NCBI GenBank assembly: GCA_037444445.1
Contig: JBBIMK010000011.1
Span: 1-32,000 of the forward strand
Direction: 5' to 3'
From: a bacterium
GTDB taxonomy: Bacteria > UBP7 > UBA6624 > JBBIMK01
Length of the DNA stretch: 32,000 nt
Below, one piece after another: positions 9,929-31,871 of this stretch. The position numbers and the translations under genes are program-made. The first letter of the stretch is position 1; every line of letters begins with the position of its first letter. A model generated the notes under the pieces. The model had not been told where the DNA came from. It made no database searches and saw only the letters and a list, made by a program, of their open reading frames with translations.

Positions 9929-9983
9929 CATCTATTATACTACAAAGGTGGAAGGATGAAGATGGGGCTGTGGAAAAGAATCG
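9929..9983. repeat. right copy of the imperfect direct repeat; also a bidirectional -10 region
   Basis: See 8905-8958. The core tctattatact reads TATACT/TATTAT on the plus strand (785-aa gene) and AGTATAAT on the minus strand (mnt-hepT operon). Confidence 0.55.
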
Positions 9984-12313
9984 GAGTTCTGTTTCTCACC
10001 CCTTTACTTTTCACCCTCCTCGTGGAGCGATTCCCGCTGTTCAATGTGGTGGGGTATGAATTTTCCCTTGCCACGGGGGCTCTACTCTATCTCGTCTCTG
10101 CCTGGATGGGCTGGTTTATTCTGGCGCTCTCACACCCTTATTCTCCACAGGAGGTGGCAGGAAATCAACCATCAGCGGGGTGCGAGGGAGCCTCTCCTTC
10201 CTCAGCATCATCGTCGGGTGTTAGCGTCCTGCCTCCTCAAAACGCCGGACCGGGTTTTTTATGGGCTCTTTCTCTGGGTTTATGGCTTCTGCTGATTCTG
10301 GATGGATTCGTTTTAGGGCTGGGGCTTTTGAATGGATTTTTTGTGAAGAATTGCGATGTGTCAGGTGGGATTAGAATGTTCGGTTTCATCGCCATTCCCG
10401 CCTCGTTTCTCGGGCTATCCACGGGCTTTCTTTCCGCCTCCATCACGAAAAGTTTCTGGAAAGCCACCGGTATGATTACTGGCTTCGCATTTCTCTCAGC
10501 CCTCTTTAGTTTTCTGGAGCATTACACTGGACCCCGGGTGAGTTTACACAATCTCATCCTGGGTCAGATTTCTTTCTACTTCTACTCTTCCTCTACGAAA
10601 ATCTTTCCCACCTTTTTTTATCATCGCTATTTTACCCTGGGGCTTTCTCTGCTGATGCTGACTGTGGCTTATATCAGGATGGCGGGCAAAAATCACCACC
10701 CTGCACAAAGCCGCATCGGGTATTCTTTCTTCTGGCTGATTCTTCTGTTGACGGTGATTCCCGCGGTTATATTTTCGGATGAAATGGGGTTAACCTCCGG
10801 TGGAAGGTTATTACGCCGCCGTCTGAACACCACGATTCAAAGCGCTCATATCCGTCTTCATTATTCGCCGTCTGATTTTTCCGTCAGAACGGTGAAACGG
10901 ATTTTAGGAGAATTGGAATGGGCGTATGAGCAGAATGCCACCGCGCTGAACTTGAACCTGCCCTGGAAGGTGGAGGCGTATCTGTATCCGTGGAGTGTGA
11001 AAGAAGAGTTGACGGGTGGAGGGGATGTTCTGTTTGCGAAGCCCTGGCGACACGAGATTCATATCACCAGCCAGGTGGACGAAATCCTTCTCCGCCACGA
11101 ACTGGTTCACACCATGTCAGCGGATTTTGGACGCTTTCCCTATGGCGTTCCTTACAACTTCTCTCTGATAGAAGGACTGGCAGAAGCCGTCTCCAGGGAT
11201 ATGGGAACAGATATACAGGCCCACTCGGCTGTGGCAGGGGCTTTACAGGCGAGGACTCTTCCCGACCCCGCCCGCTTTATGACCAACCGGGGCTTCCTCT
11301 CCCACACCCCCTATCAGGTGTATCAAGCCGCTGGCTCCTTCGTTGGCTTCCTTCTCCATACATACGGCACCGAGCCCGTCAAGAATCTTTACCGTGGCTC
11401 CCCTTACTCAAAGGCCTTCTCCAGATCCCTCCCGCAACTCGCACAGGAGTGGAAACTTTTCCTCTCTCAAGTTCCCGTCCCTTTGGAGGAAAGACAGCGA
11501 GCAGAGGTGGCTTTCAGCCCAACCTACGCCCCCGTGTTTTATGCCCGTATATGCCCCAGAGAACGGGAGCAATTAAAAGAGAAAGCAAACACCCTGAGAA
11601 ATCTGGAAAACTATACCTGGGCTCTAAAAATCTTCCAATCCTTCCACCGCCTGGAGCCTCACAACCCGGAATGGCTTCTGGAACTGGCTCAAACCGAGTT
11701 CCAGAAGGGTGATACCCGGAGTGCGCAAGCCCATCTAAAGGAAATCTTTGATGAAAATTACCCTCCGGCCTATCGGTTGCGGGCATACCAGCTCCAGGAA
11801 TTCCAGGCCGCCGAGAAAAATGACCACGCCGGTATTCTCCAGGCTCTCACACTCCAGGAATCCCTCATTACCTCCCCCTATCCACTCTTCCTCATTCAAC
11901 TCAAGAAGAAGGCGTTATCTCAAGACAATGGGTTAGACCTGTATTCTGCAATTCAATCTCCCTGTGGTCCCCAGTCGTTCTTCAAACTATATGAACTCTC
12001 CAGGGACCCGCAGTGGCAAGGGCTCCTCCTTCTCCTCCTTCCATGCGATTCTCCGTTGAAATCTCTAAAAATGGCGGAGAGCCTTCAGAACTGGATTATC
12101 CATCAGAAGCCCGAATGGAAAGAAATCTATGCCGAACGGGTGATGGAGCTCGGCGATAAGTTATACTATCAAAATCAACTGAAAGAGGCGGAGAGAGCCT
12201 ATCAACTGGCGCTTCCCTTTACATCCTCCTCAGCACGGAAGCGTCTGAACCGCCTCCTTCAGAAAGCCTCCTTCATCAAGCACTTCTCCCCGGTGGATGA
12301 GCCCACAGAATAG
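9956..12313 (+). CDS. polytopic membrane protein fused to an HExxH metallopeptidase-like domain and TPR-like C-terminus
   Basis: 785 aa. The N-terminal ~290 aa contain many hydrophobic spans and a Ser-rich linker (SPSSASSSGVS). LLRHELVHTMSADFG supplies the HExxH, with IEGLAEAV downstream. The C-terminal helical repeats (NYTWALKIFQSFHRLEPHNPEWLLELAQTEFQKGD..; LGDKLYYQNQLKEAERAYQLAL) are TPR-like. Confidence 0.6.
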   Translation: MKMGLWKRIGVLFLTPLLFTLLVERFPLFNVVGYEFSLATGALLYLVSAWMGWFILALSHPYSPQEVAGNQPSAGCEGASPSSASSSGVSVLPPQNAGPGFLWALSLGLWLLLILDGFVLGLGLLNGFFVKNCDVSGGIRMFGFIAIPASFLGLSTGFLSASITKSFWKATGMITGFAFLSALFSFLEHYTGPRVSLHNLILGQISFYFYSSSTKIFPTFFYHRYFTLGLSLLMLTVAYIRMAGKNHHPAQSRIGYSFFWLILLLTVIPAVIFSDEMGLTSGGRLLRRRLNTTIQSAHIRLHYSPSDFSVRTVKRILGELEWAYEQNATALNLNLPWKVEAYLYPWSVKEELTGGGDVLFAKPWRHEIHITSQVDEILLRHELVHTMSADFGRFPYGVPYNFSLIEGLAEAVSRDMGTDIQAHSAVAGALQARTLPDPARFMTNRGFLSHTPYQVYQAAGSFVGFLLHTYGTEPVKNLYRGSPYSKAFSRSLPQLAQEWKLFLSQVPVPLEERQRAEVAFSPTYAPVFYARICPREREQLKEKANTLRNLENYTWALKIFQSFHRLEPHNPEWLLELAQTEFQKGDTRSAQAHLKEIFDENYPPAYRLRAYQLQEFQAAEKNDHAGILQALTLQESLITSPYPLFLIQLKKKALSQDNGLDLYSAIQSPCGPQSFFKLYELSRDPQWQGLLLLLLPCDSPLKSLKMAESLQNWIIHQKPEWKEIYAERVMELGDKLYYQNQLKEAERAYQLALPFTSSSARKRLNRLLQKASFIKHFSPVDEPTE

Positions 12314-12348: not shown

Positions 12349-12380
12349 GAGGGCTACCTGCCCTCTCGCGGGATTTTTTT
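12349..12380 (+). terminator. possible intrinsic terminator after the 785-aa gene
   Basis: The stem GAGGGC-tacct-GCCCTC (12349-12365) is followed 8 nt later by a T7 run (12374-12380). The spacing is not canonical. Confidence 0.3.
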
Positions 12381-12428: not shown

Positions 12429-13727
12429 ATGAAAATACGGCTAAAGTTTGGGGTGAAGGGGCTAACGGTGGAAGTTCCGGAGGAGCATCTGGAGGCGGTG
12501 TGCCGTGTGAGGATGAAGGCACCGTTGAAAGACCCTGTAAAGCGCCTGCAGGAGTTACTGGAGAATCCCACCGGGGTGGAGCCACTGAAGAAGATGGCGG
12601 AGGGTCGGAAGTCTGCCTGCGTCGTGATATGCGACCACACGCGCCCGGTTCCCAGCGCCCTTCTTCTTCCCCCCGTTCTTCAGTGTCTGAAAGAGGCCGG
12701 CGTGTCAGAAGAAAAGACCTGCATCTTGCTGGCAACCGGTGGACATCGGGCATCTACACCCGAAGAATTAAACTGGATGGTGGGCGAGGACATCTGGAAG
12801 CGGTATGCCGTCGTGTCGCATAATGCCCGTGCAAAGGCGGAGCACACGCTGGTAGGAGAGGTGCTGGATGGCATACCCGCCTGGATTGATTCCCGATATG
12901 TCCAGGCGGAACTCAAGGTCATCATCGGGCTGATAGAGCCGCATTTAATGGCGGGGTATTCGGGTGGGCGAAAGATGGTCTGCCCGGGCATTGCGAGTAT
13001 GGAAACCATTCGGGGTGTGCACAGCCCCGCCCTCCTGGAGCATCCCGCCTCCGCTCCAGGTATCCTGACAGACAACCCGGTCCATCTCGCATGCACCCGG
13101 GCGGCTACACTGGCCGGGTGCGATTTTTCCATCCACATCACGCAGGATGACCGAAGGAAGATTACAGGCATCTTTGCCGGTGACCTTCATCAGAGTTTCG
13201 CTCAAGGGGTGGAATTCGTGGAGCAAACTTCCCGTATCCCCATCGCAAAGCCCGTGGATATTGTGGTCACTACCGGTGCCGGCTATCCCTTAGACACCAC
13301 CCTGTATCAGGCGGTGAAGGGGCTCGTGGCTGTCCTGCCCATCGTGAAACCGGGTGGAAGCCTCCTCCTGGCCGCTTCTCTATCCGAAGGCCTGGGCTCC
13401 CCCTCCTTCTGTCGCATCTATGAAGAAGTCCATAGCCTCAAAGATTTTATGCAGAAAATCACGGTGGAGGGTAAATACTGGGACGACCAGTGGCAGGTGG
13501 AGGAGCAGGCAAAGGCGGCGCGAAAAGCCGAAATCCTCTGCTACTCCCGGGCGCTTCCACCGGAAGTCCTGCGGAAAGGTTTCCTCACGCCGGTTGCCAG
13601 TGTAGAATCCGCTCTGAAATCTCTCATAGCCCGATACGGTTCCACTGCTCGTATCGCCGTGGTTCCCGATGGACCCTTCGTGATGCCCGTGGTGGCAGAT
13701 AGCCCGTCAGAAAACCGGGTGAGATAG
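12429..13727 (+). CDS. larA: LarA-family nickel-pincer-dependent racemase/epimerase homologue (DUF2088)
   Basis: 432 aa. VVICDHTRPVP, EPHLMAGYSGGRK and the overall length match lactate racemase LarA-type proteins. Confidence 0.7.
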   Translation: MKIRLKFGVKGLTVEVPEEHLEAVCRVRMKAPLKDPVKRLQELLENPTGVEPLKKMAEGRKSACVVICDHTRPVPSALLLPPVLQCLKEAGVSEEKTCILLATGGHRASTPEELNWMVGEDIWKRYAVVSHNARAKAEHTLVGEVLDGIPAWIDSRYVQAELKVIIGLIEPHLMAGYSGGRKMVCPGIASMETIRGVHSPALLEHPASAPGILTDNPVHLACTRAATLAGCDFSIHITQDDRRKITGIFAGDLHQSFAQGVEFVEQTSRIPIAKPVDIVVTTGAGYPLDTTLYQAVKGLVAVLPIVKPGGSLLLAASLSEGLGSPSFCRIYEEVHSLKDFMQKITVEGKYWDDQWQVEEQAKAARKAEILCYSRALPPEVLRKGFLTPVASVESALKSLIARYGSTARIAVVPDGPFVMPVVADSPSENRVR

Positions 13728-13782: not shown

Positions 13783-13811
13783 TTGACATATCATCTATCC
13801 AGTGGTAATTT
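13783..13811 (+). promoter_or_regulatory. promoter of the barrel-hybrid gene + membrane cassette 1
   Basis: TTGACA at 13783-13788, a 17-nt spacer ending in TGg, and TAATTT at 13806-13811. The ATG at 13826 follows. Confidence 0.5.
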
Positions 13812-13825
13812 AGGATGGGAGACGG

Positions 13826-14962
13826 ATGGCGCACGCATTTACGCCCGGGTTAAAGGTGACTCCACGCACGACGGTGGTGAAGGAAAGGAAATTGCCTTTG
13901 CAGGGGGAGGTGCTGGTTTCTAAAGGGCAGAAAGTGCGGGCGGAAGAGATTGTTGCCAGGACTCAGTTGCCGGGGAATGTGGAGGTTGTGAAGGTGGCAC
14001 AGCGGCTGGGGGCGAATCCAGATGAACTGGAGAATCTTATGCTGAAAAAAGTGGGAGACCGGGTGGAAGAAGGAGAAGTCATCGCCCGCTCCGCTGGCTT
14101 TTTCGGCCTTTTCCGCTCGGAAGTCGTTTCGCCCGTAAAAGCGACGATTGAAAGTGTTTCCGACATCACCGGGCAGGTGGTGCTTCGGGGTGAGCCCATT
14201 CCGGTTCAGGTGCACGCTTATGTGGATGGTGTAGTGAAAGAGGTTTTTCCGTCTGAAGGGGTTTCCATACAGACGAGTGCGTCCCTCGTTCAGGGTATCT
14301 TTGGAGTGGGCGGGGAAACGCAGGGCATCCTGAAAGTGGTGGCCCGCTCGCCGGATGAGGTTCTGACAAAGGATGTCATCACCCCTTCGTTAAAGGATTG
14401 CGTCGTCGTGGGGGGGGCTTTCATCACGGCTGAAGCCATTGAAAAAGCGGTCGCCGTGGGGGTTCGGGCCCTCATCGCCGGCGGCATCAGCGATGAAGAC
14501 CTGCGGAAATTCCTCGGCTATGATATCGGTGTTGCGGTGACGGGGAGTGAGGACATAGCGGTGACAATTATCGTGACGGAAGGGTTCGGGCGCCTGCAGA
14601 TGGCGCAACGCACCTTTGAATTATTGAAATCCCGGGAAGGGGAGCGGTGCTCGGTGAACGGCGCCACCCAGATTCGCGCCGGCGTCCTGCGACCGGAGAT
14701 TATCATCCCGTATGACACGGATGTGTTCTCCCTCAGCCCTTCATCGGAAGAGGTTTCTGGCGACCTTTCTATCGGCACCGTGGTCCGCATCATTCGCGAG
14801 CCGTATTTCGGGCAACTGGGCACTGTTACCGCTCTCCCCGTGGAATTGACCCGCATCGCCACCGAGAGTCAGGTGAGAGTTCTGGAAGTGGAACTGGAAT
14901 CCGGAAAAAAGGTGGTTCTCCCGCGTGCCAATGTGGAAATCTTTGAAACTGTCAGGGCGTGA
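13826..14962 (+). CDS. soluble protein with N-terminal barrel-sandwich-hybrid (lipoyl-like) motifs and C-terminal KOW-like beta domain; function unknown
   Basis: 378 aa with no hydrophobic span or signal peptide. It has two hybrid-motif-like half sites (QGEVLVSKGQKVRAEEIVART; KKVGDRVEEGEVIARS...VVSPVKATIESV). A central Gly/Ala/Val-rich alpha/beta segment follows (CVVVGGAFITAEAIEKAVAVGVRALIAGGI). The C-terminus is GTVVRIIREPYFGQLGTVTAL...VRVLEVELESGKKVVLPRANVEI. Confidence 0.6.
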   Translation: MAHAFTPGLKVTPRTTVVKERKLPLQGEVLVSKGQKVRAEEIVARTQLPGNVEVVKVAQRLGANPDELENLMLKKVGDRVEEGEVIARSAGFFGLFRSEVVSPVKATIESVSDITGQVVLRGEPIPVQVHAYVDGVVKEVFPSEGVSIQTSASLVQGIFGVGGETQGILKVVARSPDEVLTKDVITPSLKDCVVVGGAFITAEAIEKAVAVGVRALIAGGISDEDLRKFLGYDIGVAVTGSEDIAVTIIVTEGFGRLQMAQRTFELLKSREGERCSVNGATQIRAGVLRPEIIIPYDTDVFSLSPSSEEVSGDLSIGTVVRIIREPYFGQLGTVTALPVELTRIATESQVRVLEVELESGKKVVLPRANVEIFETVRA

Positions 14963-15040
14963 AGAAATGGATTTCAAGGTGGGGTATCATCGGCGGGACG
15001 ACACCCGGTCGTGCCCCGGGCAAAAGTGGGTGGCCCATCC

Positions 15041-15898
15041 ATGAACCTATTGCATTTTCCTCTTTTTAGCTGGCAATTTGCAATCGTGGAACAGCCCAAC
15101 TATTTTCATTTCGTTGATGCTACCCGGGTGAACATCTTTGTAATAGAAGCAGGATTTTTCGTGCTTCTTTTGTGGCTGATTGCTCATGCCCGGGCAGGCA
15201 AAAGCCTTTATATCCGAAGAATCAGCGGGCTGGATGCCCTGGAGGAAGCCATCGGTAGAGCCACGGAAATGGGCAAGCCCATCCTGTTTGTGAACGGACA
15301 GGCCGACCCTTCCAGCATCTCCACCGTGGCAGCCATCAATATCCTGGGGTTGGTCGCCCGGAAGGTTGCCGAGTATGAGACGCCGTTAAAAGTTCCCAAT
15401 GTGGACCCCGTCACCTTTACCGTGGAGAAGGAAACGGTGAAGGAAGCCTACATCCAGGCGGGGAAAGCGGATGTCTATGACCCGGACAGTGTTTTTTATA
15501 TTGCCGGCACGCAGTTTGCCTACACCGCTTCCGTGAGCGGGTTGATGCTTCGTGACCTCCCTGCCACCATCTTTTATCTCGGATTTTTCTATGCGGAATC
15601 GTTGATACTGGCGGAAACAGGGTCTGCCACGGGCGCCGTTCAAATCGCCGGCACCGATGCGGTGACGCAACTGCCCTTCTTCGTCGCCGCCTGTGATTAC
15701 ACCCTCATCGGCGAAGAACTCTACGCCGCCAGCGCCTACCTGACCAGAGAGCCTCTATTGTTAGGCGCCCTGAAAGCCCAGGATTATGCTAAATTCCTCA
15801 TTGCTGCTACCCTCATCGCGGGTGTCTTTATCACCCTTATATCCCGTTCAGAAGCCTTTATCAACCTCCTTCGCTGTTCCCTGAAGCTATGCCCATAA
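15041..15898 (+). CDS. uncharacterised membrane protein, module subunit A, copy 1
   Basis: Paralogue of 18376..19263. It has a TM helix (NIFVIEAGFFVLLLWLIAHA), then ARAGKSLYIRRISGLDALEEAIGRATEMGKPILF..., the conserved IAGTDAVTQLPFFVAACDYTLIGEELYAASAY, and a C-terminal TM. I chose the ATG at 15041; the track start GTG at 15011 is possible. Confidence 0.75.
   Translation: MNLLHFPLFSWQFAIVEQPNYFHFVDATRVNIFVIEAGFFVLLLWLIAHARAGKSLYIRRISGLDALEEAIGRATEMGKPILFVNGQADPSSISTVAAINILGLVARKVAEYETPLKVPNVDPVTFTVEKETVKEAYIQAGKADVYDPDSVFYIAGTQFAYTASVSGLMLRDLPATIFYLGFFYAESLILAETGSATGAVQIAGTDAVTQLPFFVAACDYTLIGEELYAASAYLTREPLLLGALKAQDYAKFLIAATLIAGVFITLISRSEAFINLLRCSLKLCP
15624..15745. repeat. near-identical DNA tract shared with A2 (18974..19095)
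   Basis: 122 nt with 4 mismatches by my count, including a 61-nt perfect run. The surrounding coding sequence is much more diverged. Confidence 0.8.
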
Positions 15899-15925
15899 GG
15901 ATGGATAGGGAGGAAGCCTGACAGG

Positions 15926-16570
15926 ATGAAAAAGGGACTGCCCATTCTTATTGCAACGGTCATCGGAGTCTACATGGTTCTTCAATATGAAACCACGAAG
16001 CAAACCTGGTTGGGTGGGCAGCTGGCAACGGTCTATCAATGGTTTAACGACTGGTACACCATTACCTGGGCTATGGTGATTCTGGTGGCCATGGGCAATC
16101 TTCTTCGGGTTCATCTGCAAAAAGTTCGTCGCCTCTCTCCGGGGTGGGCTTATTCCATCCTCACCCTCACCGGGCTGGTCTTCTACAGCGCCCTTGCCTT
16201 CTTTCCGAGGATTTCTATCGGTGAGCCGGGCGACTGGATTTTTACCTATATCTATTTTCCGCTGGATTCCACCATGTTTTCCCTGCTGGCATTTTTTATG
16301 GCATCGGCGGCGTATCGGGCATTCCGTGTGAGGAATGTGGAAGCCAGTCTGATGCTCGCCACCGCCATCCTCATTATGCTGGGCAGGGTTCCCATCGGCT
16401 CCTACATCTCCGCCCATCTGCCTGATTTGACCACCTGGATTTTAAGCGTTCCTGCTATGGCAGCCAAGCGAGGCATTATGTTCGGTGTGGCTCTGGGCAT
16501 CATTGCCACTTCTATGAAAATTATTCTCGGGATAGAGAAGCCCTATCTTGGGGGGACAAGCAGGTCATGA
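15926..16570 (+). CDS. uncharacterised polytopic membrane protein, module subunit B, copy 1
   Basis: 214 aa with about 6 hydrophobic spans. Paralogue of 19309..20046, sharing LLAFFMASAAYRAFR.RN.EASLMLATAI and KIILGIE.PYLGG. Confidence 0.75.
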   Translation: MKKGLPILIATVIGVYMVLQYETTKQTWLGGQLATVYQWFNDWYTITWAMVILVAMGNLLRVHLQKVRRLSPGWAYSILTLTGLVFYSALAFFPRISIGEPGDWIFTYIYFPLDSTMFSLLAFFMASAAYRAFRVRNVEASLMLATAILIMLGRVPIGSYISAHLPDLTTWILSVPAMAAKRGIMFGVALGIIATSMKIILGIEKPYLGGTSRS

Positions 16571-17406
16571 GTTTTCTTGACCGACTGCAGAAGATGGACC
16601 GCCGGTGGGTTTTCCTGATTTTAGCCATCGCCGTGACCGCTCCCCTGCTATTTCCACTCGGGCTGAAAATCTCTCCCACCTCCGAGTCCCTGACTTTTTA
16701 CCGTATGGTAGATTCTCTTCCCGAGGGTTCCGTGGTGATGGTTTCCTTTGATTTCGGACCCTCTGCGGCTCCGGAACTTTTACCCGTCAGCGAATCCTTC
16801 ATTCGCCATGCCTTCCGAAAGAACCTGAAGGTGATTACGCTGGCCCTCTGGCCCGACGGCTTGCCTCTGTCTCAAGATACCCCGGATAACATTGCAAAGC
16901 AGATGAACAAAATCTATGGAAAAGATTATGTGACGCTGGGATATAAGTCCGGGATTGCCAGTGTCATATCCCAGTTAGGAGAAGGGTTCCACCAGACCTT
17001 TCCTCTGGATGCCAGAAAGAACCCCTTAGAAAGTCTACCTTTGATGGAAAGGGTGAAGAATTATGACCAGGTGAGCCTCACCTGTGTTCTCGCTGCGGGG
17101 ACGAGCATTGACTGGTGGATAGGCATCGCCAATGGACGATACAAGGAAAATCTGGTAGCGGCTACCACCGCGGTCATGGCTTCGGACTATTATCCTTACC
17201 TGCAGACCCGGCAAATCCAGGGGCTATTGGGTGGATTAAAGCCCGCCGGTGAATACCAACGGATGGTGGACGGGGAAAATACTCCCCGGATGATTCGCAT
17301 GCTGGATTCCCAATCCCTGGTTCATCTCGCCATTATTTTTTTCGTGCTTCTGGGTAATGTGGGCTATCTGGTAACCCGGAACCCTGAGGCGAGAAGGAGA
17401 AAATAA
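16567..17406 (+). CDS. uncharacterised bitopic membrane protein with large hydrophilic core, module subunit C, copy 1
   Basis: 279 aa. An N-terminal TM follows MDRRW, and a C-terminal TM (LVHLAIIFFVLLGNVGYLV) is followed by RNPEARRRK. Paralogue of 20079..20930. Its start overlaps the B1 stop (ATGA). Confidence 0.75.
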   Translation: MSFLDRLQKMDRRWVFLILAIAVTAPLLFPLGLKISPTSESLTFYRMVDSLPEGSVVMVSFDFGPSAAPELLPVSESFIRHAFRKNLKVITLALWPDGLPLSQDTPDNIAKQMNKIYGKDYVTLGYKSGIASVISQLGEGFHQTFPLDARKNPLESLPLMERVKNYDQVSLTCVLAAGTSIDWWIGIANGRYKENLVAATTAVMASDYYPYLQTRQIQGLLGGLKPAGEYQRMVDGENTPRMIRMLDSQSLVHLAIIFFVLLGNVGYLVTRNPEARRRK

Positions 17407-17419
17407 GGAGAATTCGTAT

Positions 17420-18169
17420 ATGGCTATCCTCTCTCCACTGGCGCTTACTTTTGAGCCTGCCAGAGTCATTCACCCCACAGGTGGATTGTCCACTGAGGGA
17501 ATCGGTATATGGGTCGCCGCCCTGCTGACTCTGATGATTTATTCCTTCCTGTATAAGGATAACCCCTTTTATAAAACAGCAGAAAGCCTTTTTGCGGGGA
17601 TTTCCATCGGCTACCTGTTCGGAACCAACTACCAGCCGGTTTTTTTACCCAAAGTGTATCTCCCTTTGAAGATGTTCGTGGAGAAAGTCGTTGCCCGTCA
17701 ACCTCTGACGACCGGTGACTGGGGAAGCCTGAATGTTCTGGTTCCAGCCCTCATCGGTCTGTGCACCCTTTTCCCGTTTATCTATCCCCGCCTGGGGTGG
17801 CTTACCACACTTCCCTTCGCTCTGATCATCGGATATGGTGCTGGATTGAATATCCCAACGAATATCACAGCCATTCTATTAGGGCAGATGGAAGGCACCC
17901 TGAGGCCCTTTTACCAGTATAGTGCGTGGAATCCTGACCCCATGCTTTTCCTGTCCAGCCTTTTAGTTTTAGTGGGGGTTCTGGCTACGCTTTCTTATTT
18001 TTTCTTTTCAGCGGAACACAGGGGGGCGTTAGGTGTTTCTTCCCGTCTGGGCATCTGGTTCGTGATGGTCGGCTTCGGCGCCGCCTTCGGCCTCACCGTG
18101 ATGGCTCGTGTTTCACTCCTCATCGGGCGGGTAGAGTTCTTGCTCCACGACTGGCTCCACATCATCTAA
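17420..18169 (+). CDS. uncharacterised polytopic membrane protein, module subunit D, copy 1
   Basis: 249 aa with multiple TM spans. The SD AAGGAG lies 9 nt upstream. Paralogue of 20933..21730, sharing SFLYKDNP.YK.AES.F.G.SIGYL and LGIWFVMVGFGAAFG.TVMARVSLLIGR.EFLL.DWL. Confidence 0.75.
   Translation: MAILSPLALTFEPARVIHPTGGLSTEGIGIWVAALLTLMIYSFLYKDNPFYKTAESLFAGISIGYLFGTNYQPVFLPKVYLPLKMFVEKVVARQPLTTGDWGSLNVLVPALIGLCTLFPFIYPRLGWLTTLPFALIIGYGAGLNIPTNITAILLGQMEGTLRPFYQYSAWNPDPMLFLSSLLVLVGVLATLSYFFFSAEHRGALGVSSRLGIWFVMVGFGAAFGLTVMARVSLLIGRVEFLLHDWLHII
18044..18126. repeat. near-identical DNA tract shared with D2 (21599..21681)
   Basis: 83 nt with 4 mismatches by my count. Confidence 0.75.
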
Positions 18170-18266
18170 ATCTGCCCTCCCGCTGGGGCAGTTCGCTTCG
18201 CCAATCAGGTCCGGCATTCCGTCCTGACTCCCACCCTTCCTTCTTTATCCCTGAATAGCATAAGGT

Positions 18267-18295
18267 TTGACAATATAGCGGATGTATAGTATAAG
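18267..18295 (+). promoter_or_regulatory. promoter of membrane cassette 2
   Basis: TTGACA at 18267-18272, a 17-nt spacer, and TATAAG at 18290-18295. It lies in the 206-nt gap between D1 and A2. A weak hairpin (CTGCCC..GGGCAG, 18172-18190) precedes it. Confidence 0.5.
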
Positions 18296-18375
18296 GGTAT
18301 CAGATGAGGGAGGAGGAAATTTCTTTCCGTAAGGAATATTTTATTGGGAGAGGGGGAGGTGGAGAATTGAGAAGA

Positions 18376-19263
18376 ATGCTGAATCGGCTGATGGGAGGGT
18401 TGCTTCTGGTGTCTTTTTCCAGTGTTCCTGCCTGGGCGAAGGGTTGGCAACGCTTCCCGCTGGTTGATATAGAACGAATCAATGTTTTTGTTTTGAGCGT
18501 GGGGTTTATTTTCGTTCTGCTCTATTTTTTATCCCGGGCACGGAAGGGGGGCTCCCTTTATTTGCGTCGGATAGCCGGGCTGGATGCGATGGAGGAAGCC
18601 ATCGGAAGGGCGACGGAGATGGGCAAGCCCATCTATTTCATCAACGGGCTTGACCCCCCCCATTCTATTTCCACCATTGCGGCCATCAATATCCTGGGCC
18701 TCGTGGCTCGGAGGGTAGCAGAATATGAAGCCCCTTTGAAAGTCCCCAATGTGGACCCTATGACCTATGCTGTGGAGAAGGAAACGGTGAAGGAAGCCTA
18801 TATTCACGCTGGAAAAGCGGATGCCTACGACCCGGACAGTGTGTATTTCATCGCGGGAACGCAGTTTGCGTATGCGGCTGCGGTTTCCGGCTCTTTGCTT
18901 CGTGAAAAGCCTGCCACTAACATCCTGCTGGGGTATTTCTATGCGGAGTCGTTAATTCTGGCGGAAAGCGGCGCTGCCACGGGCGCCATTCAAATCGCCG
19001 GCACCGATGCGGTGACGCAACTGCCCTTCTTCGTCGCCGCCTGTGATTATACCCTCATCGGCGAAGAACTCTATGCGGCCAGCGCCTACCTGACCCGCGC
19101 CCCCCTCCTCCTGGGTGCCCTGAAAGCCCAGGATGTGGGCAAAATCCTCTCTATCGCCACTCTCCTGATGGCTACCTTCTTCACTTTCCTCGCCTATGCC
19201 TTTCTTCCCACCGTCCAGGAATCTTTCAAAGAATTTTTCCTGAACCTTTTACGAACAGCATGA
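18376..19263 (+). CDS. uncharacterised membrane protein, module subunit A, copy 2 (with signal-peptide-like N-terminus)
   Basis: The ATG at 18376 is preceded by the SD GGAGGTGGAG. MLNRLMGGLLLVSFSSVPAWA|KGW looks like a Sec signal peptide (AxA). A TM follows, then the A-type core. The track start at 18304 lies too close to the promoter. Confidence 0.75.
   Translation: MLNRLMGGLLLVSFSSVPAWAKGWQRFPLVDIERINVFVLSVGFIFVLLYFLSRARKGGSLYLRRIAGLDAMEEAIGRATEMGKPIYFINGLDPPHSISTIAAINILGLVARRVAEYEAPLKVPNVDPMTYAVEKETVKEAYIHAGKADAYDPDSVYFIAGTQFAYAAAVSGSLLREKPATNILLGYFYAESLILAESGAATGAIQIAGTDAVTQLPFFVAACDYTLIGEELYAASAYLTRAPLLLGALKAQDVGKILSIATLLMATFFTFLAYAFLPTVQESFKEFFLNLLRTA
18974..19095. repeat. near-identical DNA tract shared with A1 (15624..15745)
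   Basis: See 15624..15745. Confidence 0.8.
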
Positions 19264-19308
19264 GGAGGTGATGACCCCATTACAGAAGAAATCCTGTTCA
19301 AACACTGG

Positions 19309-20046
19309 ATGGTCACGATTGCCATCCCGTGGTTCATAGTTTTAGGCTTTGCAGGGTTCACGGTGTATGCTCTATTCAAGCCCCCTTTGCGCCGATGGGT
19401 TGCCATTAGCATCGCACTTGCCGTGGGGATGTATATGTTTTTCCAGTTCTTCACCACCACGGAAACCCCCGCGGGAGAGTATTTCAATGAATGGTTTCAA
19501 AGGTTTAACAAATGGGCGATTATCATTTCCGGACTCACCGTTATTCTTGCCGTGGGGAATCTGCTGAAAATCCACATCTTAAAGGTAAAAAAACTTCAGC
19601 CCGGCTGGGGCTACAGTTTCATCACCCTTCTTGCCCTGTTCACGATGAGCCTCTTTGGCATTCTGGGAATCCAATTTCAAAAAGAAGGGATTCCGTGGTA
19701 TCAATGGACTTTTCGGTGGCTGTGGAAAACCTTCAATGTGGCCCTGGATTCTTCCATGTTTGCCCTCCTGGCATTCTTTATGGCATCGGCGGCGTATCGG
19801 GCTTTTCGGGCTCGGAATATGGAAGCCAGCCTGATGCTCGCCACCGCCATCATCGTGATGCTGGGACGGGTTCCAGTGGGCGACTACATCACCTCTGCTT
19901 TCCCCACCCTGACTTCCTGGATTTTGATGTTTCCCAACCTCGCCGCCCAGAGAGGAATTATGATGGGAGTGGCATTGGGTGCCATTGCCACCAGCCTCAA
20001 AATTATTTTAGGGATTGAACGCCCCTACCTCGGAGGGGCTAAATGA
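19309..20046 (+). CDS. uncharacterised polytopic membrane protein, module subunit B, copy 2
   Basis: 245 aa. It carries an extra hydrophobic N-terminal segment (MVTIAIPWFIVLGFAGFTVYALF) relative to B1. The start is uncertain. The strong SD GGAGGTG at 19264-19270 is about 40 nt upstream of this ATG. It is followed at good spacing only by an in-frame ATT (19279) and by an out-of-frame 22-codon ORF (19271). Confidence 0.7.
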   Translation: MVTIAIPWFIVLGFAGFTVYALFKPPLRRWVAISIALAVGMYMFFQFFTTTETPAGEYFNEWFQRFNKWAIIISGLTVILAVGNLLKIHILKVKKLQPGWGYSFITLLALFTMSLFGILGIQFQKEGIPWYQWTFRWLWKTFNVALDSSMFALLAFFMASAAYRAFRARNMEASLMLATAIIVMLGRVPVGDYITSAFPTLTSWILMFPNLAAQRGIMMGVALGAIATSLKIILGIERPYLGGAK

Positions 20047-20078
20047 GGAGATTACATTTCATAGGGGGGGTATAGAGG

Positions 20079-20930
20079 ATGCAATTCTTTGAACGGCTAC
20101 AATTCATTGACCGTCGGATTCTATTCCTCTTCCTTGCAGCGGCTTTAATCCTCCCTTTCTTTTTCCCTTTTCAGCAGAAAATTCTCATCACTCAAGAGGT
20201 AAAGAACTTTCATCGGACCATTGATTCACTTCCAGAGGGCGCTGTCGTGGCCATTTCCTTTGACTACGGTCCTTCTGCCATGCCGGAAATTAACCCGATG
20301 GCTCGTGCGATGATTGAACAGATTTTCCAGAAGAATCTGAAATTAATCACCTACGCCCTGTGGCAGGATGGCGAACCATTTTCCATTCAAATCCCCGAAG
20401 AGCTGGCGAAACAACATCAGAAAATTTATGGCGAACATTATGTGACCCTGGGGTTCAAACCCGGACGGGTGGCTGTTATCCTCCAGATGGGGGAAGACAT
20501 TCACACCGCCTTTCCCATGGACAGTAAAGGAACACGCATCTCTGATATTCCTCTGATGAAAAACATCCGTAATTATAGCGACCTGAATCTGCTCATTGAC
20601 CTGGCGGCTGGCGCAGACCCGGACCTTTATGTGGGATACGCCGTGGAACGCTATCACATCCCCTTCCAGGCAGGTGTTACTGCCGTGATGGCTGCCAACT
20701 TCTACCCGTACCTCCAGACCCGACAGATGAAAGGACTGCTCCCCGGCTTAAAAGGCGCCTCCGAGTATGAGTTTATGGTCACTCAAGCCAATTCTCGCCA
20801 GGTTACCCAGATGATGGCTTCCCAGTCGCTGGTTCACCTCATTATGGTCCTTTTCATTCTCCTGGGGAATATGGGCTACTTTTTAACCAAATCTTATAAA
20901 AAACAGACCCAACAGAAGGGGAGGGGTTAG
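20079..20930 (+). CDS. uncharacterised bitopic membrane protein, module subunit C, copy 2
   Basis: 283 aa. Motifs shared with C1: DSLPEG.VV..SFD.GPSA.PE, KNLK.IT.ALW.DG, YVTLG.K.G, YPYLQTRQ, SQSLVHL....LLGN.GY. Confidence 0.75.
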   Translation: MQFFERLQFIDRRILFLFLAAALILPFFFPFQQKILITQEVKNFHRTIDSLPEGAVVAISFDYGPSAMPEINPMARAMIEQIFQKNLKLITYALWQDGEPFSIQIPEELAKQHQKIYGEHYVTLGFKPGRVAVILQMGEDIHTAFPMDSKGTRISDIPLMKNIRNYSDLNLLIDLAAGADPDLYVGYAVERYHIPFQAGVTAVMAANFYPYLQTRQMKGLLPGLKGASEYEFMVTQANSRQVTQMMASQSLVHLIMVLFILLGNMGYFLTKSYKKQTQQKGRG

Positions 20931-20932
20931 GG

Positions 20933-21730
20933 ATGAATACACTGACCATGCTTGCTATCTCTTTTCAGCCGGCTAAGGTCTGGACCCCAGACACTGGATT
21001 CTCACTGGATGGCCTCGGAATCTGGATTTCCGCTATTCTCTCCCTTTTCATCTTTTCTTTCCTTTATAAGGATAACCCGTTGTATAAATTTGCAGAAAGC
21101 ATCTTTGTGGGGGTTTCTATCGGTTATCTCGTGGGAATAGTGTATCACAACGGCATTGAAGCCAATGTGTATCAGGTGATGGTGAGTAAACTCGACCCGG
21201 CGACGCTAAAAAATCTCCACTATTTTCAGGAAATCAAGTATTTGATTCAACACTATCATTCGCTGGACTACTGGCCACTGGTTGCTCTGGTGATGGGCTT
21301 ATTAACACTTTCTCCATTCCTGACTGCTCGGCATGCCTGGCTGACCTCCATTCCCTTCGCATTTTACATGGGCTGGGGGTCTGGAGTTGCCATCCCCGCT
21401 AACATGCAGGCTGCCATCCTCGCCCAGCTTTATGGCACCACCTACGCCTTCTCGGTGGTAGGCGCCAGCCTCCTCAATGGCACCTTTAACCTGTGGAATC
21501 TCCTCTGGACCTTTGTGATGCTTCTGGGAATTGTGGCGACTCTGTGGTATTTCTACTTTTCCGCCGAGCACAAAGGGTGGCTGGGAGGGGGTGTAGCCCG
21601 TCTGGGCATCTGGTTCGTGATGGTCGGGTTCGGCGCCGCCTTCGGCTTCACCGTCATGGCTCGTGTTTCCCTCCTCATCGGCCGCATTGAGTTCCTTTTG
21701 AAAGACTGGCTCGGCCTCATCACCTATTAA
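20933..21730 (+). CDS. uncharacterised polytopic membrane protein, module subunit D, copy 2
   Basis: 265 aa. It is like D1 but carries an insertion (..KLDPATLKNLHYFQEIKYLIQHYHSLDYW..). It starts 2 nt after the C2 stop. Confidence 0.75.
   Translation: MNTLTMLAISFQPAKVWTPDTGFSLDGLGIWISAILSLFIFSFLYKDNPLYKFAESIFVGVSIGYLVGIVYHNGIEANVYQVMVSKLDPATLKNLHYFQEIKYLIQHYHSLDYWPLVALVMGLLTLSPFLTARHAWLTSIPFAFYMGWGSGVAIPANMQAAILAQLYGTTYAFSVVGASLLNGTFNLWNLLWTFVMLLGIVATLWYFYFSAEHKGWLGGGVARLGIWFVMVGFGAAFGFTVMARVSLLIGRIEFLLKDWLGLITY
21599..21681. repeat. near-identical DNA tract shared with D1 (18044..18126)
   Basis: See 18044..18126. Confidence 0.75.
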
Positions 21731-24085: not shown

Positions 24086-25072
24086 CTACGAGCGGTGGGA
24101 ACCCACGGCGTCGCGGAGCGCCTGGAGATTAGCCTCCGGTGTGGCGATGGGAATGACACATCCAGCGCCCAGAAGGAATCGTTTCCCTCCCGTCTGGGCT
24201 ATGGCATCTTCCGCTTCCTGTCGGACCTGTTCGGGGGAGCCTTTATACAGGGTGTTCCTCTCATTCAAACCCCCCATAACGGCGCCCGGAAAGGTTTCCA
24301 TCGCTTCAGGTAGAGAAGGGGGGGCGCGACGGTCGTGCCAGTTCACAATCTGCACCGGGTAGTCCTTGATGATGTGGAAATAGGGGTTCAAGCCGTGAAT
24401 GTGCAGGAGTATAAAATCTGCGCGGGTTGTGAGAGGGTTCAGAACCTCCAGCTCATAAGGGACGCCGAAAGTTTTGTATTCATTTTCCGTGAGAATTTCT
24501 GCGGTAGCGGTTTTGGTGGCGAAGAAAATCGCATCTGCGCCAGAATTTAAGCAGGCCTTTGCATAGTTCAGCGTAGTATGAGTGATAATTTCCAGCCCGG
24601 CATGCACCTCTTTCGGCTTCTCCCGTATGTCATTCCGCCAGGCATCTCCCCGGAGTTCTGTAAGTATGGTGAGAGGGCTGAAGAGGGTGGGCAGGAGGGG
24701 AATGTCCCAGCCGATTCCCGCCCGTATCTGTTGAAGGGCTCGCAATTGCATGCCGAGGATGCCCTTATGAACCGATGGAGGGGTGAGTTTCGGCCAATCT
24801 TCAGGAAAATGAACGGGACGGCTGCGGTAGGTTCGGGTCCCGTCCTCGGCATCGGTGGGCACCAGTTGAGCGCCGAAGGCTTCCGCCATATACCCGCTGG
24901 CGAAGGTCACTTTCACCAGGTCCCAGTCATATTTCTTCTGGAAGGCGATGGTTTCTTTTGCCAGACTCTCCGCCGCTGTATCCTCAATGGGAAAATGCCG
25001 CCACACCGCCACAGGAACCCTCTCTACTTCTTCCCCCCGTATCACCTTTTGAATCCATTCCCTCCTCGTCAT
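24086..25072 (-). CDS. uroporphyrinogen decarboxylase (URO-D) family protein, MtaA/CmuA-like
   Basis: 328 aa. The N-terminus MTRREWIQKVIRGEEVERVPVAVWRHFP and the TIM-barrel-like length and pattern are typical of URO-D family methyltransferase/decarboxylase homologues. Confidence 0.6.
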   Translation of the reverse strand: MTRREWIQKVIRGEEVERVPVAVWRHFPIEDTAAESLAKETIAFQKKYDWDLVKVTFASGYMAEAFGAQLVPTDAEDGTRTYRSRPVHFPEDWPKLTPPSVHKGILGMQLRALQQIRAGIGWDIPLLPTLFSPLTILTELRGDAWRNDIREKPKEVHAGLEIITHTTLNYAKACLNSGADAIFFATKTATAEILTENEYKTFGVPYELEVLNPLTTRADFILLHIHGLNPYFHIIKDYPVQIVNWHDRRAPPSLPEAMETFPGAVMGGLNERNTLYKGSPEQVRQEAEDAIAQTGGKRFLLGAGCVIPIATPEANLQALRDAVGSHRS

Positions 25073-25214
25073 ACCCCTTTTTCCTCCTGCGGGCCCATTA
25101 CTATCTTATCACATATCCCCCTGCTTCGCCGGGGGTTAATCAGGCTCACCTTTCCGGATAGAGAAATGGAAAGGGGAACGGAAAATCGGGTGAATGAATT
25201 CAGCGGAATCAGGC

Positions 25215-26723
25215 TCAGCGCTCTTTTTCGCCTTCAGGAGGAGGGGTGGCGCCGACTCTGGGCAATTTTCTTACCAGGTCTTCCAGTTTCATACCGGTGA
25301 GGCTTTCTATCACGGGAGGGAGTTGAGCGAGGATAGTGGCGATGTCGCCGGTAACCCGGGAGGCGCCCGCGGTGGCAGAATCCCCACCGGTGCTCACAAT
25401 GACTATCTTTTCCGTTTTCGCTAACGGCTCGGATACGGCGCTGGCGATTTTGGGCAGGGCTTCCACGATAATCTGGCTCAATGCCGCTTCGTTATACATT
25501 CTCCAGGACTCGGCTTTTTTCCGCATGGCTTCCGCTTCGGAAAGCCCCTGGGCTTTGATAACATCGGCCTGGGCAAGGCCGCGGGCGCGGTTGGCGTCGC
25601 CTTCCGCCACGCCCGTGGCTTTCACCACATCCGCCTGGGCAAAGCCTGTGGCTTTGATGGCGGAGGCTTGCCCTGCCGCCTCTGTTTCCAGTTTGAATTT
25701 CTGGGCGTTGGCGAGAGTCTCAATCCGATACCGCTCCGCTTCCGCTGGCTTGTTCACCGTGGCTTCTAATTCCTTCTGCTTCCGGGTGATTTCCAGTTCC
25801 TGAACTTTGATTCTCTGCTCCTTTTCCACGATGTCCACACCCACTTCTTCCTTCTTCACTTCCTGGGAGGTGCGGAACTTCTGGAGGTCATAAGCCAGGT
25901 CAGCCTGGGCTTTCTTCTCGTTGACGGCGGCAGTGAACTCCGCAACGCGCATCTTATAATCCCGCTCCGATTCCGCAATCTTCGTGTCAGCGGCGAACTT
26001 CGCCGTCTGCCCCTCCTGATTTGCAATGGCGGAGCGGATGGTGGCGTCCCGATTCGCTTCCGCTTCCGCTATGACTGCATCCCGCTTTACCTGAGCAATC
26101 CGGGGCCGTCCAAGGGCGTCTAAATACCCTTCATTGTCCTTGATGTCCTTCATCGTGAAGGAAACGATGGTGATGCCCATATTCGCCAGGTCGGCGGCGG
26201 CTACTTCTTGCACCTTCTGGGCGAAGGCATCCCGATTTTTATAAATTTCTTCCACCGTGAGAGTTCCGAGAATCGCACGGAGATGCCCTTCTAAGGTCTG
26301 ATGAATGATGGAAGTCATTTCCGCCCGGCTCTTATTCAAAAACTGCTCGGCGGCCGTGGCAATGCTCACATCATCGCCCTTCACCTTCACCTGGGCGACG
26401 CCGGAAACGACTACGGGAACGCCCATTACTGTGTAGACTTCCGGCGTTTGAATCTCCAGCGTCATCACTTCCAGGGAAAGGGCATCCACCTTTTCAATGA
26501 TGGGCCAGACGAAGGTGCCACCCCCTTTCACCGTGCGGAAGCCCACGGTGTACACCCGACCACTGGCGTCCCGCATTCGGTGCCTCCGCCCCGAGATAAT
26601 CAGGGCTTCATTGGGGCCTACCTTTACATACCGGCTGGCATAAATGATGATGAAGAGGAAGATAGCCACCACAACCCCACCCACCACCAGGACGACAAGT
26701 GAAGTAGGCACAGGCAATGCCAT
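25215..26723 (-). CDS. floT: flotillin (SPFH-domain, FloT/YuaG-like)
   Basis: 502 aa with an N-terminal TM, an SPFH domain and a long Ala/Glu/Lys-rich coiled coil carrying repeated AQADV(I/V)KA motifs. It is preceded by an NfeD gene, as in B. subtilis yuaF-floT. Confidence 0.85.
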   Translation of the reverse strand: MALPVPTSLVVLVVGGVVVAIFLFIIIYASRYVKVGPNEALIISGRRHRMRDASGRVYTVGFRTVKGGGTFVWPIIEKVDALSLEVMTLEIQTPEVYTVMGVPVVVSGVAQVKVKGDDVSIATAAEQFLNKSRAEMTSIIHQTLEGHLRAILGTLTVEEIYKNRDAFAQKVQEVAAADLANMGITIVSFTMKDIKDNEGYLDALGRPRIAQVKRDAVIAEAEANRDATIRSAIANQEGQTAKFAADTKIAESERDYKMRVAEFTAAVNEKKAQADLAYDLQKFRTSQEVKKEEVGVDIVEKEQRIKVQELEITRKQKELEATVNKPAEAERYRIETLANAQKFKLETEAAGQASAIKATGFAQADVVKATGVAEGDANRARGLAQADVIKAQGLSEAEAMRKKAESWRMYNEAALSQIIVEALPKIASAVSEPLAKTEKIVIVSTGGDSATAGASRVTGDIATILAQLPPVIESLTGMKLEDLVRKLPRVGATPPPEGEKER

Positions 26724-28354: not shown

Positions 28355-28372
28355 TCCGGGAGATGATGCGTG

Positions 28373-30097
28373 ATGGTTCACGAATTTGATGTGGTGATTG
28401 TGGGGGGAGGAGGAGCGGGATTATGGGCTGCTCTGGAAGCCTCCCGGCGGTGCAAAACCGCGGTCCTGTCCAAGTTATATCCCACCCGCTCGCATACGGG
28501 GACGGCCCAGGGTGGCATCGGCGCCGCCCTGGGCAATGTGGAAGAAGACCACCCGGAATGGCATATGTTTGACACCGTAAAGGGAAGTGATTATTTAGCC
28601 GACCAGGACGCCGTTGAAATCCTGTGCAGGGAAGCGGTGGAAACGGTGCTCTCCCTGGAGCATATGGGCTTGCCGTTCAACCGCACATCGGAGGGGAAAA
28701 TTGACCAGCGCCCCTTCGGTGGGCACACCTCTAACTTCGGGAAAAAACCGGTAAGACGAGCATGCTACGCCGCTGACCGAACAGGACACATGATTCTACA
28801 AACCCTCTACCAGCAGTGCATCAAAAATCAGGTGGCTTTTTATGATGAGTTTCAGGTTCTGGATGTGCTGTTAGAGGATGGAATTTGCAAAGGTGTCGTG
28901 GCATGGGAACTCGCCACCGGCTCCCTGCACACCTTTCTTTCTAAGGCGGTGATTCTTTGCGTCGGTGGCGCCGGCAGGATGTTCAAAATCACTTCCAACG
29001 CCCATTCCCTCACCGGCGATGGTATGGCTATTTGTGCCCGCCGGGGCATCCCCCTGGAAGATATGGAGTTCTTCCAGTTCCATCCCACGGGAATTTACAA
29101 GCTGGGCATCCTGATTACGGAAGCCGTTCGGGGTGAGGGTGGGATTCTCCTCAATCAGGATAATGAACGGTTTATGGAACGCTACGCACCCACGCTGAAA
29201 GACCTGGCACCCCGGGACCTGGTTTCCCGCTGTATGTACACCGAAATCCGTGAGGGCAGGGGCATTGATGGAAAGGATTACCTGTATCTGGACGCCACTC
29301 ATCTCGGAAGGGAAGTCATAGAGAAGAAACTTCCTGATGTGGCTGATTTCACACGAACCTATTTAGGAATTGACCCTGCAGAGAAGCCCATCCCCGTCCA
29401 GCCTACTGCTCATTATATGATGGGCGGTATACCCACAGATGTGGACGGTCGGGTGATACAGGATGAAAAGAATACCCCCGTTCCAGGCTTGTATGCGGCG
29501 GGAGAATGCGCCTGCGTCAGCGTTCACGGAGCAAATCGTCTGGGCACCAACTCCCTGGTGGATATTCTGGTTTTCGGGCGTCGCTCAGGCCGTCACGCTG
29601 CCCTCTACGCCCGGGAGGTGGATTTACCCTCACTGCCCGATGACCCGGAACGCTACGCCCGCCAGCAAATAGAAGCACTCCTGAGAAGAGAAAAAGGGGA
29701 ATCGGTGGCTGAAATCCGCTCCACCCTCCAGAGCGAAATGATGGACAAGTGCTCCGTTTTCCGAACCAGCACGGATTTGCTCCTCCTCCAGAAAACGATT
29801 CAGAATCTAAAGGACCAGTATCGGGGCGTGGCTATCCACGACCGTGGAAAAAAGTTCAACACGGAATTGATGGAAGCATGGGAACTGGGATGCTTGCTGG
29901 AATTAGCCGATTGCACCGTCGCATCCGCACTTCAGAGAACGGAAAGCCGGGGTGCCCACTACCGTGAAGATTTCCCCAATCGCGATGATGAACGCTGGCT
30001 GAAACACACCCTCGCTTATCCGAAGGAGGAGGGCTGGAACTTCCGCTACAAGCCCGTCGTCATCACCCGCTTCCCCCCCGCTGAACGAAAGTATTAA
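28373..30097 (+). CDS. sdhA: succinate dehydrogenase / fumarate reductase flavoprotein subunit
   Basis: [15 protein letters not shown] is the FAD dinucleotide fold. [11 protein letters not shown] contains the covalent-FAD His. HPTG, RGEGG and [23 protein letters not shown] are also present. Confidence 0.95.
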
Positions 30098-31856: not shown

Positions 31857-31862
31857 CCGCAA

Positions 31863-31871
31863 ATTATAGCA
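31863..31871 (-). promoter_or_regulatory. extended -10 promoter TGCTATAAT for the riboswitch-lipoprotein transcript
   Basis: The minus strand reads TGCTATAAT, immediately upstream of the riboswitch P1 region. Confidence 0.5.

Follow-up and report, generated by a model that had tools for sequence, protein, structure and literature searches.

What kind of membrane system is encoded by two adjacent sets of four small genes that resemble one another pair by pair, in the same order and on the same strand? The question is raised by positions 13783 to 21730 of contig JBBIMK010000011.1 (assembly GCA_037444445.1, a bacterium of the lineage UBP7), within a stretch of 32,000 nucleotides (nt) that was analysed as a whole and is referred to here as the window. 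An original prediction, made by a model from the sequence and a list of its open reading frames (ORFs), had proposed a conserved heteromeric membrane machine that belongs to no characterised family and is kept in two specialised copies. Our results support this proposal, since no match to a known system was obtained and the four genes co-occur widely in other genomes: the eight ORFs are two paralogous copies of a conserved four-subunit inner-membrane complex, whose subunits are called A, B, C and D in the following. What the complex does can be answered with less certainty, and a role as a cargo-specific transport machine is the reading that we tentatively favour, at somewhat short of an even chance. 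The genes concerned, including a gene upstream of the first copy that is termed U, are as follows (TM, transmembrane; aa, amino acids).

13826..14962, + strand: U, 378 aa, soluble cytoplasmic partner, no TM segment (ORF list)
15041..15898, + strand: A1, 285 aa, DUF6754 protein, predicted cytoplasmic alpha/beta core between two TM helices (ORF list; PF20539, E 8.5e-109)
15926..16570, + strand: B1, 214 aa, polytopic, predicted six TM helices, N-in/C-in (ORF list, hydropathy)
16567..17406, + strand: C1, 279 aa, bitopic, predicted periplasmic Rossmann-like domain between two TM helices
17420..18169, + strand: D1, 249 aa, polytopic, predicted 5-6 TM helices (ORF list)
18267..18295, + strand: promoter-like site, TTGACA, 17 nt spacer, TATAAG (read from the sequence)
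18376..19263, + strand: A2, 295 aa, DUF6754 paralog (PF20539, E 5.7e-105)
19309..20046, + strand: B2, 245 aa, paralog of B1
20079..20930, + strand: C2, 283 aa, paralog of C1
20933..21730, + strand: D2, 265 aa, paralog of D1

All eight ORFs of the two copies are present in the ORF list at the predicted positions, order and strand, and the shared motifs that had been quoted for the A, B, C and D pairs are all found in the translations. Pairwise paralogy was further established by global alignment, with amino-acid identities of 69% for A1/A2, 54% for B1/B2, 49% for C1/C2 and 55% for D1/D2, every pair scoring z > 57 against shuffled sequence, and comparison of the window proteins across the A, B, C and D families revealed no similarity between families. 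At the DNA level the two copies are 60-72% identical, which indicates an old duplication and not an assembly repeat. Gene spacing is operon-like within the modules, as predicted: B1 and C1 share an ATGA overlap (16567-16570) and the remaining intra-module gaps amount to 2-45 nt. The spacer between D1 and A2, to which the prediction made no reference, is 206 nt long and contains the TTGACA-17 nt-TATAAG site, so that copy 2 may be transcribed from its own promoter; the automated promoter scan skipped this site, as its rule demands a T as the last base of the -10 hexamer.

We then asked how far the module extends beyond this genome. A homolog search with A returned at least 8000 clusters at 90% identity, all with E ≤ 1e-3, whose named sources include WOR-3, Latescibacteria and Stahlbacteria. 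Scanning one genome per species yielded at least 563 A-encoding stretches, and the best 80 of these (the genome loci) all stem from metagenome-assembled genomes, labelled WOR-3, Stahlbacteria, Latescibacterota, Eisenbacteria, Fermentibacteria, Zixibacteria, Poribacteria, Edwardsbacteria, Brocadiaceae/Anammoxibacter, Methylomirabilis, Nitrospirota, Ignavibacteria, Gemmatimonadota, Armatimonadota and CSSED10-310. Among the A genes in those loci that could be tested, having at least 3.5 kb of downstream DNA, 63 of 76 have B, C and D behind them in that order; B plus C or D, still correctly ordered, is found in eight of the 13 exceptions, and some of these 13 are probably ORF-calling losses. A homolog of B comes after A at nearly every locus. 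The D family comprises 2047 clusters at 50% identity (E ≤ 1e-3). Co-occurrence of A, B, C and D in the same order is therefore found in many phyla besides that of the window, and the module is widespread across many, mostly uncultured, diderm phyla, anammox Planctomycetota among them. Relative to the window proteins, identity is about 57% for A, 42-43% for B and D and 37% for C, and between A1 and its counterparts in other phyla it ranges over 52-61%; in every comparison made, conservation is highest in A and lowest in C.

Membership of known families was evaluated in several ways. The claim that no subunit belongs to a named family stands for B, C and D, which have no match in Pfam or NCBIfam, but has to be amended for A: A1 and A2 score 363.1 and 350.5 bits, respectively, against Pfam DUF6754 (PF20539; cut-off 27, profile positions 5-249 of 257), and are thus full-length members of a family without known function. 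Pfam models subunit A alone, while B, C, D and U are without a family. Scanning 58 B, 50 C and 55 D alignment members against Pfam at E ≤ 1 gave no consistent weak match; DUF373, 7TMR-DISM, Acyl_transf_3 and DUF3704 appeared in a minority of B or D members with E > 1e-3 and were dismissed as hydrophobic-bias noise. Moreover, PDB sequence and profile searches with A, B, C, D, U and an ATPase associated with U (described below) returned nothing below E 0.02. PADLOC had no match for A1, B1, C1, D1, U, the ATPase or the small ORF that accompanies it, and an anti-phage defence system was rejected on that basis. The possibilities that B and D, or A and C, are distant paralogs of each other were likewise discarded, with hhalign probabilities of at most 2% (2% for B against D). 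Altogether, Pfam, NCBIfam, PADLOC, PDB profiles, Foldseek (for A and C) and hhalign against Rsx proteins agree with the prediction that A-D match no characterised system. Full-text searches of the literature found no paper mentioning DUF6754, PF20539 or PF13941, and keyword searches gave nothing relevant; overall, the module appears to be new, with no characterised relative for any of its subunits.

The topology of the subunits was assessed from alignment-averaged hydropathy and counts of lysine plus arginine (K+R). Hydropathy confirmed that A and C each consist of a hydrophilic core between N- and C-terminal helices, with TM helices at approximately residues 29-48 and 251-273 in A, where a K/R-rich segment follows TM1, and at approximately 13-34 and 248-268 in C, whose termini are K/R-rich. 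B shows six TM helices with both termini inside, and D five or six, in line with the roughly six spans predicted for each. The positive-inside rule had been used to place the core of C outside and that of A in the cytoplasm, and this arrangement is backed by the K+R counts as well as by domains acquired in homologs. Most A homologs carry 1-4 Fn3 domains N-terminal to TM1, and as Fn3 domains are typically extracytoplasmic, the A core lies in the cytoplasm. In addition, the TM3-TM4 loop of B hosts FG-GAP repeats in locus L067 and a C core in locus L052, which puts both the loop and the C core outside, so that domains are present on both faces of the membrane. Polar residues are invariant in the second TM helix of C (Q249, H253 and N264), and D has invariant R230 and R237.

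Several rearrangements also bear on whether the four proteins work together. In two representative clusters, P0438 and P0507, C and D are joined over their full length in a single protein of 598 aa, with E ~1e-80 for the C part and ~1e-72 for the D part. At L052:1255-2598, a C core (profile positions 35-209, E 2e-41) lies between B profile positions 92 and 97, and at L067:8743-10521 the FG-GAP repeats are inserted in B. The C-D fusions and the C-in-B insertion, together with the invariant gene order and the overlapping start and stop codons, support the assembly of A, B, C and D into a heteromeric complex, as judged from gene architecture. D variants P0476, P0505 and P0418 were also observed to bear charged, probably coiled-coil, inserts of 200-350 aa between TM4 and TM5.

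Duplication of the module is not confined to the window. Of the 80 genome loci, about 13 have the complete module in two or three tandem copies. Such duplication has recurred in different phyla, with C as the subunit that diverges fastest. In the triplets (L065, L067, L077 and L083, of Ignavibacteria/Zixibacteria type), copies best match the copies in the same position elsewhere, which shows that those duplications are old, and the C copies within one locus are 27-41% identical. In the window and in L021, the copies are mutual best matches, pointing to lineage-specific duplications. The closest relative found, L171, whose U is 85% identical to that of the window, has a single U-A-B-C-D set followed, like the window, by URO-D and flotillin genes. 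Its A is nearer to A1 (85%, versus 73% for A2), and its B, C and D are nearer to copy 2 (68, 62 and 68%, versus 59, 53 and 54% for copy 1). As B, C and D of the more distant single-copy locus L172 are likewise nearer to copy 2, B1-C1-D1 is the faster-diverging set.

The gene preceding the module, U, turned out to be a recurrent companion. Its product has a putative barrel-sandwich hybrid domain of the NqrA/RnfC/biotinyl-lipoyl-like kind at the N-terminus, followed by an alpha/beta region and a C-terminus that is KOW-like. The family comprises at least 8000 homolog clusters at 90% identity and is about 50% identical across phyla, with an invariant N-terminus (MAHAYTPGL) and the motifs QGIFGVGGE, TEGFG and NGATQIRAGV.RPE; UniRef calls some members KOW domain proteins. 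Among 12 members, sub-threshold Pfam matches were obtained to RnfC_N (8/12), Biotin_lipoyl (10/12) and NQRA_N (5/12), all of them weak. A role of U as a biotin or lipoyl carrier was rejected, as there is no conserved Lys at the hairpin tip (ARSAG in the window, versus a consensus AETK). The gene immediately 5' of A is U in 13 genome loci, and in a metagenome survey of 80 U-centred loci A follows directly in 14 of the 61 testable cases; in the WOR-3 assembly GCA_013177935, A-B-C-D (L001) and U (L085) are found apart. These observations identify U as a conserved cytoplasmic partner that is genomically coupled to the four-gene module.

U itself has a frequent neighbour. A protein of about 600 aa is encoded directly before it in 32 of 59 cases of the metagenome survey and matches Pfam MutL (PF13941, a GlmL-type actin-fold/ASKHA ATPase) with E ~1e-130, and a small hydrophobic ORF often lies 5' of the ATPase gene. 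The full arrangement of small ORF, ATPase, U and one or more A-B-C-D modules is seen, for instance, in L115, L129, L136 and L165, and the trio of small ORF, ATPase and U is tandemly duplicated, independently of A-B-C-D, in L139, L148, L150, L153, L159 and L166. In many genomes, coupling of the module extends to the small hydrophobic protein and the ASKHA ATPase of GlmL/MutL type. The GlmL/MutL proteins of glutamate mutase operons match the same PF13941, but the U-linked ATPase differs from them in being associated with U and a membrane module instead of B12-dependent mutase genes, and in having a C-terminal extension of about 120-150 aa. A PDB sequence search found no solved structure for it.

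To relate these proteins to possible activities, structural models and residue conservation were considered. The AlphaFold model of C1, built on a 50-sequence alignment, is of high confidence (predicted local distance difference test, pLDDT, 95.5; predicted template modelling score, pTM, 0.91) and shows a TM helix at either end, the C-terminal one being long, with a Rossmann-like domain of three alpha/beta/alpha layers between them (residues 39-235, approximately). Foldseek comparison of this model with the PDB gave a best E of 2.7e-4; the matches, with TM-scores near 0.3, were generic enzymes of the Rossmann fold (halves of GT-B transferases and of short-chain (SDR) and medium-chain (MDR) dehydrogenase/reductase enzymes). 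Because only such generic matches were returned, the modelled fold of C is regarded as generic Rossmann-like, without a specific structural relative. The conserved residues D62, G98, G125, T201 and G223 are situated at or just past the ends of modelled beta-strands. The A1 model is of moderate quality (pLDDT 65); residues 60-160 form a beta-alpha-beta unit that is modelled with confidence. Foldseek comparison of the A1 model with the PDB gave no match with E < 0.1, which at such a pLDDT carries little weight. The A family displays the invariant motifs GRATEMGKP, AESLILAETG and IQIAGTD..QLPFF..ACDY..GEELYAASAY, and its core has an invariant C218-D219-Y220 cluster plus several Glu/Asp residues.

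Regarding cofactor and nucleotide-binding signatures, a regular-expression check agreed with the prediction that HExxH, CxxC and heme motifs are absent from A-D, and no redox-cofactor motif is conserved in them. C218 of A is the sole conserved cysteine across all families, B1 and B2 being free of cysteine. The accompanying statement that Walker motifs are absent requires qualification, as A1 contains a Walker-A-like string, AHARAGKS (residues 48-55); since it is missing in A2 and in the family consensus, it is taken as a chance match, and a P-loop in A1 based on it was rejected. GRATEMGKP was also considered as a P-loop of A and discarded: P-loops in NTPase structures follow the order strand-loop-helix, and the model shows the reverse, helix-loop-strand.

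How, then, is the complex likely to act? In the transport machine that we tentatively favour, B and D together would provide the conduit across the membrane, cargo would be recognised by the periplasmic domain of C, which evolves fast and would be tied into B/D via its polar TM helix, and the highly conserved cytoplasmic domain of A would dock U, plus the ATPase where present, for energy coupling or gating; duplicated modules would then provide copies that differ in cargo or regulation. On this view, specificity would reside in C on the periplasmic side and coupling in A on the cytoplasmic side. This proposal is based on the fast evolution of C and slow evolution of A, on the lack of redox or catalytic signatures and on the whole-module duplicates, which have been kept repeatedly, a pattern that operons for substrate-specific transport typically show. 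Tripartite ATP-independent periplasmic (TRAP, DctPQM) and tripartite tricarboxylate (TTT, TctABC) transporters offer a partial likeness, as they combine an extracytoplasmic alpha/beta component with two unequal membrane components, use no ABC ATPase and often occur as several paralogous operons per genome. They differ from the module in that C is single-lobed and tethered at both ends by TM helices, versus a soluble two-lobed binding protein, and in that A and U have no counterpart there. The models DctQ/DctM, TctA/TctB and, for transporters of the PTS-mannose type, EII-Sor/EIID-AGA were matched neither by the window proteins nor among the most-matched families of the B, C and D alignments at E ≤ 1. 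ABC_tran had no match in A-D or U, and was not among the 25 commonest families of the immediate flanks in the genome loci (71 upstream and 48 downstream neighbours).

A number of observations weigh against transport. No subunit is homologous to a known transporter, channel or pump family, although B or D could be very distant members of a known transporter superfamily, and A-D contain no nucleotide-binding motif. The PF13941 ATPase and the small ORF are absent from the window, and the ATPase does not adjoin U in about half of the U loci. The most conserved stretch of A (residues 171-234, in its C-terminal half) is poorly defined in the model. Moreover, the flanking genes are lineage-dependent and give no consistent clue to a substrate (elsewhere they include 2-hydroxyacid dehydrogenase, DHQ-synthase-like, xylose-isomerase-like, Wzi and MazG genes), and riboswitches, tried as a further substrate clue, are lacking near the module in the window and in seven other loci. 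Finally, it would be unusual for nutrient transporters to be conserved to the extent seen in A and U (50-60% identity between phyla), which could point to a housekeeping machine instead.

This last point also speaks for a different role, in which the complex belongs to envelope biogenesis or the cell surface and moves or anchors an envelope component (a polysaccharide, lipid-linked glycan, lipoprotein or surface protein), or spans the periplasm, and does not import small solutes; we consider this possible but unlikely. High conservation of A and U would suit such a housekeeping role, and further hints come from the 1-4 periplasmic Fn3 domains of A homologs, the FG-GAP repeats in the periplasmic loop of a B homolog, a gene for a Wzi-like outer-membrane protein after D in WOR-3 and Latescibacteria loci, the position of U next to the mraZ/dcw cluster in one WOR-3 genome, and its position in L086-L088, L107 and L147, where it follows genes for TPR or TMEM260-like (GT-C type) proteins of the membrane; in the window, too, a gene for a TM+TPR protein closely precedes U. 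However, the Fn3 and FG-GAP decorations are lineage-specific and the window proteins have neither, few lineages show any given one of the Wzi, dcw and TPR contexts, up to three diverged modules per genome would be unusual for a single housekeeping machine, and Pfam scans revealed no homology of the Lpt, Lol, Mla, Wzx or Wzy type. A membrane-bound enzyme or sensor, with a catalytic or signalling cytoplasmic domain in A and with B, C and D as scaffolds, seems very unlikely to us. The extreme conservation of the A core with its invariant Cys/Asp/Tyr, and the location of conserved C residues at beta-strand ends, as in ligand-binding Rossmann-like domains, would be compatible with it, but no enzyme or signalling family was matched, no output domain is present, and four co-evolving membrane subunits that are duplicated together are hard to explain as scaffolds.

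An ion-translocating redox or energy-converting complex built like Na+-NQR or Rnf was examined on account of the recurrent sub-threshold RnfC_N and NQRA_N matches of the U N-terminal domain and of the subunit inventory. The inventory of subunits loosely parallels NqrA-E: a soluble subunit with a putative barrel-sandwich domain (U) is encoded ahead of several small membrane subunits, which comprise two polytopic proteins of about 200-250 aa (~210 aa in the parallel drawn with NqrA-E) and one TM-anchored protein with a periplasmic domain, and the invariant acidic residues of A, as well as the Arg, His and Asn residues that are invariant within or close to TM helices of C and D, could be read in the same direction. 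The details differ, as C is Rossmann-like with two TM helices and not FMN_bind, B and D are unrelated, whereas NqrD and NqrE are homologous, and U is without the NADH and Fe-S parts of RnfC. Furthermore, when the profiles of A-D were aligned by hhalign with RsxA, RsxD, RsxG and RsxE of E. coli, probabilities stayed below 1%, compared with 98.8% for the RsxA-RsxE control, and no match to Rnf-Nqr (PF02508), NQR2_RnfD_RnfE or FMN_bind was obtained even at E ≤ 1 (58 B and 55 D members, C being scanned too). A-D have no conserved Cys pairs, flavin or Fe-S ligands of the Nqr/Rnf kind, and no NqrF/RnfB-type partner is found among the flanking genes. U itself scores 21.7 bits against RnfC_N (cut-off 25.6), and its hhalign probability against RsxC is a weak 5.7% over 39 residues. 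On the basis of Pfam, hhalign with its positive control and the absence of cofactor motifs, membership of A-D in Rnf/Nqr was rejected, leaving only a loose architectural resemblance, and we rate a redox complex of this type as highly improbable.

The remaining genes of the window were also inspected. Between a terminator-like site (12357-12372) and U lies a gene (12429-13727, + strand) for a homolog of LarA-family nickel-pincer 2-hydroxyacid racemases (Lar_N + LarA_C), which scores below every NCBIfam equivalog cut-off (best 385 bits, versus 460). A functional link between it and the module, through hydroxy-acid transport, was rejected, as the relative L171 has U-A-B-C-D and the same downstream genes but no LarA; given this absence and the lineage specificity of the flanks, the substrate cannot be inferred from the neighbours. 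The TM+TPR protein upstream of U (9956-12313, + strand; 785 aa) combines a polytopic membrane region at its N-terminus with an HExxH string (RHELVHT) and, at the C-terminus, TPR repeats, and may be another loosely linked component. Downstream of the module, URO-D family and flotillin (Band_7 + Flot) genes occupy 24086-26723 (- strand), as they do at L171:10835-12653, where an EcoRV-type restriction-modification pair intervenes. Away from the module, a class II fumarase gene (1209-2567, - strand) and a succinate dehydrogenase/fumarate reductase flavoprotein gene (28370-30097, + strand) were found. At 31680-31865 (- strand), a cobalamin riboswitch (RF00174, 100.8 bits, E 1e-23) lies directly upstream of an ORF of 384 aa without Pfam match (30509-31663, - strand), which is thus a candidate uncharacterised B12-regulated gene.

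The identity of 50-60% that A and U retain across phyla indicates strong selection on these two proteins. Taken together, A-B-C-D, U, the small hydrophobic protein and the GlmL/MutL-type ATPase could even constitute an unrecognised class of primary transporter or translocon, widespread in uncultured phyla and powered by an ASKHA (actin/Hsp70-fold) ATPase in place of an ABC, P-type or rotary ATPase; we regard this as quite unlikely. The C-D fusions provide material for structural work, and the confidently modelled periplasmic domain of C for ligand screens. Should the complex be a transport or an envelope machine, its association with an actin-fold ATPase might reveal a new principle of energy coupling, and a large gap in what is predicted of the physiology of many candidate phyla would be closed.

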